Below are positions 9,684 to 17,276 of a DNA stretch of 64,000 nucleotides, in pieces. Every line of letters begins with the position of its first letter. The first letter of the stretch is position 1. The notes under the pieces are model-generated. The model searched no databases, was not told the origin of the DNA, and saw only the letters and a program-made list of their open reading frames with translations. The position numbers and the translations under genes are program-made. The DNA is from Candidatus Thiothrix moscowensis (GTDB taxonomy: Bacteria > Pseudomonadota > Gammaproteobacteria > Thiotrichales > Thiotrichaceae), in the NCBI GenBank assembly GCA_016292235.1, contig JAEHNX010000017.1:574-64573 (forward strand), given 5' to 3'.

Positions 9684-11999
9684 TCAGAAACGGTACTCGA
9701 AATAGGCCGGGTTTGCCGTAACATTCGGATAAGCGTCCTCTGCATCCCCTCCCAACGCACGGTTGTTACCATGGAACACGACCCGCAAGCGGGCAGGGTT
9801 GCCCAGCCAACTGCGCGGCAGGCTGAATTCGGCAGTTTGCCCGTTAATGGCGTAAGTGCTTGTACCTTGCTGTGTCCAGCTCCAGCTTGTGCCATCGCCG
9901 CTGTAACGCCACAGGGTGCTGCCTTCCAACAGGTATTCCGCCCCCACTGCACCACGCTGGTAGCCGCTGGCGGGGTTGCTGTCTGTATCCAGATAGACCT
10001 GATAGCCCCAGAAACCACTGGTGTTGACGTTGTTGCGGGTACGGTAGGCCAGCCACAGATTGCTACTATTGTGCGCCATCCAGCCTTCCAGCCAGTCAAG
10101 CGGGTTACTGGTTCCGCTGACATCGGCAGGGTCTGTACCGAATGAAGTCAGGCCGTTCCAGTCAGTGAGATTGCCGTCTGTTGTCAGGCTGCTGACCGGG
10201 TTGCTGACACCGCTGGTGCTGCCGCCACTGGCTGTATACATCTTGTAAGTGAAGTAACGGGTAGTAGCGCTATTGCTGAAAGCTCCATCCGGGTAGATGT
10301 CCTTGGCATCGCCACCAAACGCGATGTTGTTGCCCCAGAAAAACAGGCGCAATTCGGTACTGTTGCCCAGCCAGCTACGCGGGAAACTGAATTCTGCCAC
10401 GTTGCCGCTGACCTGATGGGTCAGGCTGCCCTGGTGTGTCCAGCTCCAGCTTGTACCGTCGCCGCTATAGCGCCACAGGTTGCTGCCTTCCAGCAAGTAG
10501 TCGGCTCCCAGTGCGCCGGTACGGTAGCCGGTGGTGCTGCTGGCATCTGTATCCAGATAAGCCTGATAGCCCCAGAAGCCGCTGGTATCAATCGTGCCCT
10601 TGGTCTTGTAGGCCAGATAGACACGGGAGGCGTCATTGGCCATCCAGCCTTCCAGCCAGTTGAGTTTGTTGCTGGTTCCACTGACATCATCCGGGTCAGC
10701 ACCAAACGAACTCAAGCTACTCCAGTCGGTGAGACTGCCGTTGACACTGATGCCGCTGCCATTGTTGGAAACCGTGCCGCCAGCAGGAGGTGGTGGCGGT
10801 GGTGGGGTGGTTGCGCCGGTTTCATTGCTGTCACTGAGTGGATTCCGGTTGTGCCAGTCACGCGGGGTGATGCGGAAATGTGTCCAGTGCGTATCCATGC
10901 GCGGGGCATCTTCGGCACGCGGCATGTGGTAGAAGGTGACGGAAGGCCACACCACCAGGTCTTGCCCGACCAGGCTTTCACCATTCACAAAGGTGCTCAG
11001 GTCAGCAGCGCAGCCATTGGTGGTCGGGTTGTGCGAGGCAAACAGCTCGCAATTTTTTTGCCGGGTGACGTAAAAGTCGTAATGGGTGAAAGGCTCACTG
11101 CTGGGGCCTTCGTCCTTTTGCCCGGATTCGTTCAACTGGATGTCATAGGAGATGGGCAGGTTCTTGCTGTTACGCAAGCTGGTATCCAGTACCCGCCAGA
11201 ACCGTAATTTGGCAGGATCCACATTGCGGGCGGCTTCCGTGCTGAAGCGGGTATGGGTGCGGGAAGTCTTGCCAGCAGTTTGGGTATGGTCGATTTCCTC
11301 CACCGCATCATCGTTGCTGGTTGCGCCCAGATCGAAATCCAGTTTCCAGAAAAAGTTGTGCAGGTGGGCAATGCCAACCTTGTTGCTTTCCAACAGCCAG
11401 CCATGTTGGGCGATACTAGCAGTGCCGAAGCGTTGCAAGGCTCCAGTTGCGCCCACACCCGGTTCGATAGCGCCATCATCCAGAAAACGCCATTCGGGAA
11501 TGTAGTTGTATGCGCCAATGGCTGACACGCTGAACAGGCTGAGGGCGTCACCCTGCAAGCGGTCAGCGTCGACGCTAAAGGCATCATCGCGGCTTGTCAC
11601 CTGTTTGCAGATGATGTTTTTGCCGAGGTAGGCGAGCCGTTCACCACCGGGGCATTCCTCGGCAGCTAGATCCTTGATGTAACCGCCACCCAGCCCATAG
11701 TCGGAAACATCATGGTAGCGTGCGCCGTTGTCATCGTAAGGTACGTGGATTTGCGCCATGGCTGCCTCGTGCAACACCATCTGGCGCGTGCCGTTGCGCG
11801 GGGTGTAATGGATGTGGTGCAACACCACGCCTTCCCGGTTGCGGTGTTCCCAGCACATGTCCCAGCGTGCCTGATTGGGCAGGGTGGTTTCGATGTAATA
11901 CGTATCAGCACAGAATTCAGCCGCCTGGGCGGGGATGCTGCCCAGCCCGGCAAGTGTCAGCAGGGCAGCCAGTGGATAACGGAAATGGTGCAGTTTCAT
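9684..11999 (-). CDS. Secreted copper amine oxidase-like catalytic (D4) domain with poly-Pro linker and two DOMON/CBM9-like repeats
   Basis: Signal peptide; VPYDD..RYHDVSDYGLG (Asp97), IGAYNY (Tyr164), HLH (212/214), YHMPRAED (His358), PRDW. Confidence 0.85.
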   Translation of the reverse strand: MKLHHFRYPLAALLTLAGLGSIPAQAAEFCADTYYIETTLPNQARWDMCWEHRNREGVVLHHIHYTPRNGTRQMVLHEAAMAQIHVPYDDNGARYHDVSDYGLGGGYIKDLAAEECPGGERLAYLGKNIICKQVTSRDDAFSVDADRLQGDALSLFSVSAIGAYNYIPEWRFLDDGAIEPGVGATGALQRFGTASIAQHGWLLESNKVGIAHLHNFFWKLDFDLGATSNDDAVEEIDHTQTAGKTSRTHTRFSTEAARNVDPAKLRFWRVLDTSLRNSKNLPISYDIQLNESGQKDEGPSSEPFTHYDFYVTRQKNCELFASHNPTTNGCAADLSTFVNGESLVGQDLVVWPSVTFYHMPRAEDAPRMDTHWTHFRITPRDWHNRNPLSDSNETGATTPPPPPPPAGGTVSNNGSGISVNGSLTDWSSLSSFGADPDDVSGTSNKLNWLEGWMANDASRVYLAYKTKGTIDTSGFWGYQAYLDTDASSTTGYRTGALGADYLLEGSNLWRYSGDGTSWSWTHQGSLTHQVSGNVAEFSFPRSWLGNSTELRLFFWGNNIAFGGDAKDIYPDGAFSNSATTRYFTYKMYTASGGSTSGVSNPVSSLTTDGNLTDWNGLTSFGTDPADVSGTSNPLDWLEGWMAHNSSNLWLAYRTRNNVNTSGFWGYQVYLDTDSNPASGYQRGAVGAEYLLEGSTLWRYSGDGTSWSWTQQGTSTYAINGQTAEFSLPRSWLGNPARLRVVFHGNNRALGGDAEDAYPNVTANPAYFEYRF
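9720..10751 (-). repeat. Two ~155-aa tandem domains in the amine oxidase-like protein
   Basis: Both carry G.L.DW, FG.DP.DVSGTSN, FWGYQ.YLDTD, YLLEGS.LWRYSGDGTSWSW, AEFS.PRSWLG (about 10284-10751 and 9720-10187). Confidence 0.9.
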
Positions 12000-12017: not shown

Positions 12018-13178
12018 TCAAAACGGGTTTTGCGAATGCCAGTCACGTGGCAGGAGCTGGAAGCTGCTCCAGACCGTGCCGATACGGTTGCTGTCTTCGC
12101 TGCGGGGCAGGTGGTGGTAACTCTGCTTGTACCAGACCACCACGTCTTGCTGGTTGAGGCTTTCGCCGTTCACAAACTGGCTGACATTGCCGGTGCAGCC
12201 GCTGGTTAGGTTGTTGGCAGCGTATTTTTCGCAGGCGTTGTAGCGGGTGAAGAAGACGTCTTGTGCCAGCCATGCTTCGTTGGCGCTGTTGGCGCGGCTC
12301 TGGTCGTAACGGGTCGGCACTAGTTCGTAGGACAGGTTGCCAACCGCTCCGTTGTTGAGGATGCCATCACGCACCCGCCAGAAGCGCTTGGTTTCCGGGT
12401 CGAAGGTGCGCCCGGTTTCCGTACCGACTGTGGTGATGGCTTTGGTTTTGCGCAGGCGGTCACTGCTGGGTGTGCTGGTGATTTCTTCCACCATGTCGTT
12501 GGCATGGGTGGTGTCAATGTCAAAATCCAGCCGCCACAAGGCATGGTCGGTGAAACCGGTGGCAATGTTGCCGCTTGCCATAGCAGGCCAACCGTACTGG
12601 CTGTTGCTGGCATTGACGATGGGCAACTCGCCGCTAAGACCTAGGGCGGGTTCAATCGTGCCGTTTTCGTAAAAGCGCCAGCGTAGCGTGTAATTGCGTG
12701 CGCCGATTTGTGACTGGCTGGCAAGTTCCCACAACTGCCCTTGTCGTTGGCTGGTGTACTTGTAGTGGTAGCCGTGGTCGCGGGTAGTGGCACACAGCAC
12801 GTTACGCCCGCCACTGGCGTGGAGTGTTCCACCGGGGCAAGCACTGGCAGGCAGGGTTTGCAGGTTGGTTCCACCCAACCCGGCTTCCGTGGTCAGGAAC
12901 AGCGGGGTGACGGAACCATCATCCAGCGCAGTTTCCAGTTGGGAAAGGCTGGCTTCACCCAGTACCCGGCGCTGGGCATGGGCAGGTGCTTTGTAACTGA
13001 TTTGGGAAAGCACTACACCTTCTGCCTGACGGGTAGTCCAGCACAGGTTCCAGCTTGCCCCGGAAGCGAAGGTTTTGCTGAGGGTTTGCCCGTTACAGGT
13101 ACTGGTGGGGGCAGCGTTGACGGGCGCTTGCCACCAGACCAGCAGGCAGAGTGTCAGCAGGGTATGACGGTATCGCAT
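12018..13178 (-). CDS. Secreted copper amine oxidase D4 paralog lacking catalytic residues
   Basis: Colinear with the 9684-11999 N-terminal part (EGVVL, CPGG, WRF.E.G.IEP, FWRV, FVNGESL, PRDW) but IGARNY, FTDH and no catalytic Asp. Confidence 0.82.
   Translation of the reverse strand: MRYRHTLLTLCLLVWWQAPVNAAPTSTCNGQTLSKTFASGASWNLCWTTRQAEGVVLSQISYKAPAHAQRRVLGEASLSQLETALDDGSVTPLFLTTEAGLGGTNLQTLPASACPGGTLHASGGRNVLCATTRDHGYHYKYTSQRQGQLWELASQSQIGARNYTLRWRFYENGTIEPALGLSGELPIVNASNSQYGWPAMASGNIATGFTDHALWRLDFDIDTTHANDMVEEITSTPSSDRLRKTKAITTVGTETGRTFDPETKRFWRVRDGILNNGAVGNLSYELVPTRYDQSRANSANEAWLAQDVFFTRYNACEKYAANNLTSGCTGNVSQFVNGESLNQQDVVVWYKQSYHHLPRSEDSNRIGTVWSSFQLLPRDWHSQNPF

Positions 13179-15635: not shown

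Positions 15636-17272
<1,637 letters not shown>

Positions 17273-17276
<4 letters not shown>

Follow-up and report, generated by a model that had tools for sequence, protein, structure and literature searches.

A 64,000-nucleotide stretch of contig JAEHNX010000017.1 from Candidatus Thiothrix moscowensis (hereafter the window) carries a minus-strand gene, at 9684-11999, for a 771-residue protein that looks like a copper amine oxidase (CuAO) but has A-Y-N-Y where such enzymes have N-Y-D/E-Y around the tyrosine precursor of their topaquinone (TPQ) cofactor. The locus thus raises the question of whether Tyr164 of this protein still becomes TPQ, whether it becomes some other cofactor, or whether its maturation calls on a di-heme enzyme encoded in the same operon. 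A preliminary description made from the letters of the window had taken the unusual motif as a sign that the cofactor, substrate range or maturation route might differ. We find that the fold, the catalytic residues and a score above threshold all place the product of 9684-11999 in the CuAO superfamily. Across the homologous sequences that we compared, A-Y-N-Y is the normal state of a whole family and no peculiarity of this gene. On balance we favor a TPQ that would be formed by self-processing in a secreted, split CuAO, with the di-heme enzyme and a YtkA-like lipoprotein acting as an accessory pair for copper delivery, and we consider this account reasonably probable.

The active site and its cofactor motif

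The match of the 771-residue protein to PF01179 passes the curated Pfam threshold by a wide margin (155.1 bits against a cut-off of 27, E 3.4e-45), and a profile of 102 family sequences finds the pea, E. coli and Arthrobacter CuAOs over the whole catalytic D4 domain (E 2e-44 to 1e-39). The protein lies far under the NCBIfam cut-offs for primary-amine oxidases, at 122 against 651 for NF008559 and 56 against 1278 for NF011285. Given the single sequence alone, AlphaFold (AF2) returned a predicted local distance difference test score (pLDDT) of 31; we instead supplied the 102-sequence alignment, and the resulting D4 model reached a pLDDT of 95 and a predicted TM-score (pTM) of 0.92. The structural comparison with TynA and AGAO that the preliminary description had proposed agrees with its reading of the domain, as the top Foldseek matches of the model are CuAOs only, with TMq values of 0.84 for the Arthrobacter enzyme AGAO (E 3e-25) and 0.79 for the E. 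coli enzyme ECAO (TynA) at about 24% identity.

The cofactor motif can be placed with the same precision. A phmmer search of the PDB laid the segment saigAYNYipeW on AGAO TTIGNYDYGFYW without a gap, which sets Tyr164 on Tyr382, the TPQ precursor, Ala163 on Asn381, Asn165 on Asp383 and Tyr166 on Tyr384. The family profile likewise set vgaYnYipewrf, ungapped, on pea CuAO VGNYDNVIDWEF (E 2e-44). In both, the CuAO catalytic domain with an A-Y-N-Y motif is as the preliminary description had it, and its placement of the Tyr164 codon at 11508-11510 is exact, the codon being TAC on the minus strand. One gapped alignment of the paralogue offered another register, with Tyr166 as the cofactor residue and the N-Y of AYNY or ARNY on the canonical N-Y. 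We rejected it because neither the family-profile alignment nor that to AGAO has a gap between Gly at -2 and Trp at +6, and both set Tyr164 on TPQ. The consensus T-x-x-N-Y-D/E reads A-I-G-A-Y-N in this protein, with Thr at -4 replaced by Ala160, a position that varies across the family.

Around this altered motif the catalytic residues are intact. The residue correspondences listed in Table 1 are based on three independent alignments together with global TM-scores. Asp97, the His212/His214 pair and His358 had been proposed from the letters as the catalytic base and copper ligands; the alignment to AGAO supports all four, and we add Tyr88, which had gone unlisted. Tyr88, Asp97, Tyr164, His212, His214 and His358 are invariant in the family alignment (102/102), as are Asp97, Tyr164, Tyr166, His212, His214 and His358 in 120 of 120 close homologues. 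Judged from the aligned sequences, the match of this residue set to a CuAO active site is far beyond chance. Cys116 and Cys131 are also invariant and align with cysteines of pea CuAO, and they probably form a conserved disulfide. Every residue that is invariant in the 102-sequence alignment has a canonical CuAO counterpart, so that no new invariant Lys, Cys or Trp appears there. The family does have near-invariant residues of its own that lack such a counterpart, namely His371 (98/102), Trp372 (92/102), Arg94 (87/102), Asn215 (83/102) and His96 (79/102).

How widely the relaxed motif is shared was judged from large searches. A word-indexed search returned 517 relatives of the 771-residue protein, and an exhaustive HMMER search of 1.84 billion cluster representatives returned 1167 at E<=1e-3 and 212 at E<=1e-30 (clusters at 50% identity). 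Motif residues were counted in the 151 best representatives (50% identity), of which 116 are catalytically complete and about 30 belong to degenerate lineages; completeness here means that Asp97, Tyr164, His212 and His214 are present, the third His being cut off in ten fragments. The residue before the cofactor Tyr in the 116 complete representatives is mostly Ala (64), followed by Glu (14), Asn (8), Ser (7) and Gln (6); the residue after it is mostly Asn (67), followed by Tyr (11), Thr (9), Ser (7) and Glu (6), with Asp in none; and Tyr stands at +2 in 115. The canonical N-Y-D/E occurs in 0 of these 116. Among the 120 close homologues, A, S, E, Q or K occupies position 163, with N in none, and N, Y, V, S, H or I occupies position 165.

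These changes fall at positions whose residues are held to be conserved and functionally important in TPQ enzymes (PMC3382800), and in this the preliminary description, which had called the flanks non-canonical at TPQ-conserved positions, is supported by the alignments. A 2025 survey mentions, among exceptions to the motif, only a plant clade that lacks it (PMC12058724), and our own literature search (CuAO with MauG, Thiothrix, PF01179 in bacteria) found no description of this family. The 771-residue protein departs from classical TPQ oxidases in two defining traits, the T-x-x-N-Y-D/E consensus and the single-chain D2-D3-D4 architecture. The family could serve as a natural experiment on the true requirements for TPQ biogenesis and positioning, in which the copper site, base and cofactor Tyr have been kept and the flanks have been left free.

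Operon layout and the split oxidase

The oxidase gene is the third of five minus-strand genes, for proteins of 222, 386, 771, 132 and 396 residues, that are tightly packed in the window and form an operon (Table 1). The genes lie 12-23 bp apart, save for the last two, which share 4 bp. The nearest genomes are those of Thiothrix caldifontis, T. fructosivorans and T. lacustris (identity 77-79%). Within the window's own genome, which is about 99% complete, the 771-residue gene and its paralogue neighbor are the only CuAO-like genes.

Table 1. Features of the oxidase operon, with positions in the window
Feature	Position	Strand	Basis
CuAO N-terminal (D2/D3)-like exported protein, 222 aa	13191..13859	-	NCBIfam NF008559, synteny
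Degenerate D4 paralogue, 386 aa	12018..13178	-	36% identity to catalytic domain
CuAO catalytic gene, 771 aa, frame intact	9684..11999	-	PF01179
Sec signal peptide, residues 1-26 (ends ...PAQA, followed by AE)	11922..11999	-	translation; similar leader directly before D4 in homologues
CuAO D4 catalytic domain, residues 27-395	10815..11921	-	PF01179, family profile, AF2, Foldseek
Tyr88 (VPYDD), position of the Tyr that hydrogen-bonds TPQ O4	11736..11738	-	aligned with AGAO VPYGD, Tyr284
Asp97 (YHDVSDYG), catalytic base position	11709..11711	-	aligned with Asp of AGAO YFDTGEY
Tyr164 codon TAC, TPQ precursor position in G-A-Y-N-Y	11508..11510	-	alignments to AGAO Tyr382 and pea TPQ Tyr
His212-Leu-His214, position of two copper ligands	11358..11366	-	aligned with AGAO HQH, His431 and His433
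His358 (YHMPRAED), position of third copper ligand	10926..10928	-	aligned with AGAO THFPRVED, His592
Seven-proline linker, residues 399-405	10785..10805	-	translation
C-terminal repeat 1, residues 410-587	10239..10772	-	similarity to repeat 2
C-terminal repeat 2, residues 598-771	9687..10208	-	similarity to repeat 1
YtkA/CtaK-like lipoprotein, 132 aa	9262..9660	-	PF13115, lipobox LAGC, M-P-T-H-G-H-G loop
MauG/MbnH-like di-heme enzyme, 396 aa	8075..9265	-	PF03150, two CxxCH, Tyr362

The D2/D3-like identity of the first gene product rests on an NCBIfam match together with synteny. Residues 23-145 of the 222-residue protein match positions 9-130 of NF008559 (E 2e-7), as do 23 of 27 orthologues. 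A family profile of this N-domain had no match in the PDB at E 0.01, its sole matches there being weak but collinear ones to the N-terminus of HPAO (E 0.92 and about 1). For synteny we sampled 79 genome loci and four contigs, and 56 of the loci are well flanked; in 49 of these 56 the oxidase genes are immediately preceded by a gene for a homologue of the 222-residue protein, often with a degenerate paralogue between it and the catalytic gene. Because the N-domain gene is separate and D4 follows directly on the signal peptide, the enzyme is split, with its D2/D3-like and D4 parts exported as separate polypeptides.

The paralogue at 12018-13178 has Arg161 at the TPQ position, Leu in place of the catalytic Asp, and Phe and Asp in place of the HxH pair, and it retains the Cys pattern, the signal peptide and an intact frame. 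As Arg occupies the TPQ position, we rejected the paralogue as a MauG target there. Degenerate lineages in general (about 30 of the 151 representatives) are highly diverse at the catalytic sites. Some Thiothrix and Thiolinea genomes have a second locus, in which four CuAO-domain genes, two complete and two degenerate, surround one N-domain gene (L003:3732-9167; also L035, L037, L042 and L043); no di-heme or YtkA gene lies near these loci.

Beyond the D4 domain, the C-terminal repeats of the 771-residue protein are 60% identical to each other (E 2e-78). A Pfam search with these repeats and with the 222-residue N-domain protein returned nothing, even at E 5, and the ESM Atlas feature gave weak leads only for the repeats, to Glucodextran_C and CBM9-like clusters; the repeats possibly have a carbohydrate- or surface-binding role. 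Homologues carry other C-terminal appendages, which are immunoglobulin (Ig)-like, cadherin-like or He_PIG domains, and these appended domains suggest surface anchoring. The family occurs in the Thiotrichales (Thiothrix, Thiolinea, Cocleimonas and Leucothrix) and beyond them in the Methylococcales, Chloroflexota (Caldilineaceae), Actinomycetota (Microthrixaceae, Acidimicrobiales and Rubrobacter) and Myxococcota. Many hosts belong to groups that are filamentous or sheathed (Thiothrix, Leucothrix, the Caldilineaceae and the Microthrixaceae). In relatives, exopolysaccharide genes for a GH12 protein, a chitin-synthase-like GT2, a polysaccharide deacetylase, an outer-membrane barrel, Poly_export and a sulfotransferase adjoin the CuAO operons (L001:99-5831 and L003:9176-17017). 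Such neighbors and the filamentous or sheathed habit of the hosts hint at a substrate in the matrix or sheath, and from the appended domains a polymer-bound or surface amine may be a reasonable guess. The family as a whole suggests that bacteria such as Thiothrix, Leucothrix, Caldilineaceae and Microthrixaceae have an unexplored class of amine oxidases that are secreted and probably anchored at the surface.

Elsewhere in the window, an open reading frame (ORF) for a membrane protein at 15636-17276 (+) has, in translation, a long run of (Val/Phe)-Ala dipeptide repeats at about 16377-16508.

The di-heme enzyme and its YtkA-like partner

The last gene of the operon encodes a member of the cytochrome c peroxidase (CCP)/MauG superfamily (PF03150, E 2.3e-41), with CATCH at residue 84 and CILCH at 260. 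Its best sequence matches in the PDB are the bacterial cytochrome c peroxidases 3o5c and 1iqc (E 1e-28). Its Tyr362 aligns with the Met ligand of 3o5c (..NTM) and with a Tyr of the MbnH-like 6e1c (..DIY). The enzyme scores under the equivalog cut-offs for both MauG (TIGR03791, 142 against 443.85) and MbnH (TIGR04039, 149 against 362.85). Neither a methylamine dehydrogenase (MADH) gene nor a gene for an MbnP substrate adjoins it; its neighbor is the 132-residue YtkA-like lipoprotein, whose match to PF13115 is weak (E 2.4e-6, 28.5 bits against a cut-off of 25.9).

The preliminary description had suggested that A-Y-N-Y might signal a need for this co-encoded di-heme enzyme, and the distribution of the genes speaks against that suggestion. 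A MauG-like gene adjoins the oxidase in 20 of the 56 well-flanked loci, in Thiothrix, Thiolinea, Cocleimonas, Leucothrix, Halioglobus and some other gammaproteobacteria. The other 36, which have the same x-Y-x-Y motif, have no such gene nearby, and it is absent from the loci of Methylococcales, Chloroflexota and Actinomycetota. A-Y-N-Y itself is equally common with the MauG-like gene (11 loci) and without it (12 loci). In the reverse direction, 17 of 400 gammaproteobacterial genomes, the window's own included, proved to have orthologues of the di-heme enzyme, and about 9 kb of flanking sequence was considered for these. Two genomes of the same family, the Thiotrichaceae, have the full CuAO operon beside the orthologue; outside the Thiotrichaceae, a CuAO-like gene lies within about 9 kb in 0 of 18 di-heme loci. 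The di-heme gene is thus not inherited with the oxidase wherever the motif is non-canonical (20/56 loci; 0/18 in the reverse search), and its orthologues elsewhere pair with YtkA-like proteins.

That pairing is the more constant association. A YtkA-like protein is present in 15 of the 18 di-heme loci outside the Thiotrichaceae, encoded immediately beside the enzyme in 13 and fused to it in two, as proteins of 532 residues (L127:8596-10191, +) and 521 residues (L128:9001-10563, -). At a further locus, a 282-residue YtkA-like protein contains two matched YtkA stretches (L122:6401-7246, -). A complex model of the window's di-heme enzyme with the 132-residue lipoprotein scored 0.63, the best control scoring 0.00; in calibration, 51 of 78 solved complexes and 2 of 108 mismatched pairs reached that score. 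The modelled interface includes, on the lipoprotein side, the M76-P-T-H-G-H-G loop (residues 79-88, including H79-G-H81) and, on the enzyme side, residues 262-273, right after the CILCH at 260, and in this model the loop could bind metal while facing the heme domain. The pairing and fusions together with the complex model argue that the cognate partner of the di-heme enzyme is the YtkA-like protein.

The company that the pair keeps in other genomes bears on its function. In two gammaproteobacterial genomes it lies directly downstream of giant galactose/glyoxal-oxidase-like proteins of 1720 and 1867 residues (L125:10714-15873, -; L127:2941-8541, +), which contain lectin, PA14 and PKD domains and an internal CCP_MauG-like stretch. 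Galactose/glyoxal-oxidase-like proteins form another class of H2O2-producing copper oxidases with a Tyr-derived cofactor. At L119:4376-7859 (+), a heme-copper oxidase operon (COX1, two COX3-like genes and COX4_pro) immediately precedes the pair. The gene layout at L124 is similar, judged by ORF sizes alone. The YtkA domain is shared with CtaK, a Bacillus subtilis lipoprotein to which a part in supplying copper to CuA has been ascribed (PMC13344008), and the position beside a heme-copper oxidase operon fits a CtaK-like role in copper delivery. The YtkA-like and MauG-like genes together stand out as a two-gene module of their own, found with copper enzymes of different kinds. The pair behaves as a portable accessory of these enzymes, whose task would most simply be copper handling. 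Our literature search found no description of a YtkA/di-heme pair.

A more ambitious interpretation would make the pair a portable maturation module for exported copper oxidases with Tyr-derived cofactors, needed in Thiothrix-type bacteria to metallate the CuAO, or to oxidize it directly so that its cofactor can form despite the missing Asn and Asp/Glu. If true, a CuAO cofactor would for the first time be seen to depend on an accessory for its formation; we regard this as unlikely. The di-heme enzyme might also be a peroxidase that clears oxidase-made H2O2 at the periplasm or surface, with the YtkA-like protein as its accessory and with no relation to the cofactor or to copper. Its closeness to 3o5c and 1iqc would suit such a peroxidase, as would the fact that its CuAO and galactose-oxidase-like neighbors both yield H2O2. 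However, the enzyme has Tyr where classical peroxidases have their Met ligand, the neighbors of the pair include a heme-copper oxidase operon, which makes no H2O2, and the obligatory YtkA/CtaK-like partner indicates copper. We give the peroxidase only a small chance, a little below that of the maturation module.

Proposed self-processing, its alternatives and the closest known systems

We return to self-processing in the split CuAO, with the YtkA/di-heme pair in copper supply. The D4 domain (residues 27-395) would bind Cu(II) through His212, His214 and His358, and Tyr164 would most likely become TPQ in an autocatalytic reaction with Cu and O2, the route of classical CuAOs. Asp97 would then act as the base, and Tyr88 would hold the quinone O4, during the oxidative deamination of a primary amine to an aldehyde, NH3 and H2O2. 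The D2/D3-like part would come from the first gene of the operon, the degenerate D4 paralogue would probably be a non-catalytic dimer partner, and the two C-terminal repeats would probably hold the enzyme on a surface polymer. The YtkA/CtaK-like lipoprotein and the MauG-like enzyme are an independent pair, which would have been recruited to the CuAO operon only in Thiotrichales-type bacteria and would most likely serve copper supply rather than the oxidation of Tyr164.

Several considerations favor TPQ. The fold and the homology to TPQ CuAOs over the full length are established. The residues with no known role outside TPQ chemistry, namely Tyr88, Asp97, Tyr164 and the three His, are invariant in 102 diverse homologues. 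In addition, the AGAO variant N381A still self-processes to TPQ, with biogenesis 180-fold slower, kcat 160-fold lower and the ring flipped (PMC9491219), so that Ala at -1 is compatible with TPQ. Since A-Y-N-Y is normal in the whole family, orientation of the quinone would have to rest on residues other than the motif flanks.

Several points weigh against this account. The argument for TPQ is drawn from conservation, and the cost of Ala at -1 in AGAO means that the natural enzymes need some compensation. In Thiothrix-type bacteria the di-heme gene is tightly linked, its start overlapping the end of the lipoprotein gene within the operon, and its product has the Tyr ligand typical of the protein-oxidizing enzymes MauG and MbnH. 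These same features could mean that, in the Thiotrichales clade, the MauG-like enzyme directly oxidizes Tyr164 or another residue of the oxidase or its paralogue, building or speeding the quinone and offsetting the lost Asn and Asp/Glu. The slow biogenesis of N381A shows that such help would be useful, and the placement of the pair after galactose-oxidase-like proteins, with their Tyr-derived cofactor, in two other genomes would fit as well. Yet the motif is the same in the 36 of 56 well-flanked loci that do without the di-heme gene; outside the Thiotrichaceae YtkA-like proteins, and in no case a CuAO gene, accompany the di-heme orthologues; a partnership with YtkA is backed by the complex model; and all copper ligands for self-processing are intact. 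Direct action of the di-heme enzyme on the oxidase is thus, in our estimate, rather doubtful even within the Thiothrix-type clade, and slightly more so than a peroxidase.

Another alternative abandons plain TPQ for non-classical chemistry, either at a cross-linked quinone of the lysine tyrosylquinone (LTQ) or cysteine tryptophylquinone (CTQ) type or at a Cu-tyrosyl site. The motif lacks its consensus Thr at -4, its Asn at -1 and its Asp/Glu at +1, three positions out of four around the Tyr, which would accord with this, as would the family's own conserved His371, Trp372, Asn215, Arg94 and His96. However, Asp97 and Tyr88 are invariant and in CuAOs serve the Schiff-base mechanism of TPQ, Tyr166 corresponds to AGAO Tyr384, and no invariant Lys or Cys is free for a cross-link, given that Cys116 and Cys131 are probably joined in a disulfide; a different cofactor therefore seems improbable, by a shade more than direct oxidation. 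That the 771-residue protein is a non-enzymatic surface or adhesion protein with a leftover CuAO-like fold, as its varied adhesion-type C-terminal domains in homologues (Ig-like, cadherin-like and He_PIG) and its clearly degenerate adjacent paralogue might suggest, is very hard to reconcile with six catalytic residues that are invariant over several phyla, especially as loss of function has its visible counterpart in a separate degenerate lineage.

Our findings can be set beside several characterized systems. B. subtilis CtaK (YtkA), implicated in copper delivery to a cuproenzyme, is like the 132-residue protein a lipoprotein with a YtkA domain (PF13115), but it has no di-heme partner in Bacillus, and the PF13115 match of the Thiothrix protein is weak and its copper binding putative. 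The systems of MauG with pre-methylamine dehydrogenase and of MbnH with MbnP share with our di-heme enzyme the fold, the two CxxCH motifs and the Tyr at the distal-ligand position, and MbnH, too, has a small dedicated partner encoded next to it. The di-heme enzyme of the window differs in lying below both equivalog cut-offs, in having a YtkA/CtaK-like lipoprotein as its partner, and in a link to CuAO that is restricted to one clade. For a surface-anchored oxidase, the lysyl oxidase of Pichia pastoris (PPLO; 1n9e and 1rky), a secreted CuAO that acts on protein-bound amines and matches the family profile at E 1e-31, offers a functional analogy; it is a single chain with canonical N-Y-D-Y.

For the catalytic domain itself, the closest known systems are AGAO (1av4, 3wa2 and 7wir) and E. 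coli TynA/ECAO (1oac and 1dyu), with the same D4 beta-sandwich. They share with the Thiothrix protein the three His ligands, the Asp, the O4-binding Tyr, the cofactor Tyr, the Gly at -2, the Tyr at +2 and a Met near the copper site. The Thiothrix system differs from them in having D2/D3 on a separate upstream gene, two added C-terminal repeats and a co-encoded degenerate paralogue, and in its motif, where Ala stands in for Thr at -4 and for Asn at -1, and Asn for Asp at +1. Comparable at the cofactor is AGAO N381A (7wir and 7wis; PMC9491219), which ranks first in the PDB sequence search and also has Ala before the cofactor Tyr. There, however, Ala was engineered and left an enzyme with crippled biogenesis and turnover and a flipped TPQ, whereas in the Thiothrix-type family it is the commonest natural residue. 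That a large and conserved family should carry Ala most often at -1 implies that the missing Asn is compensated for elsewhere.

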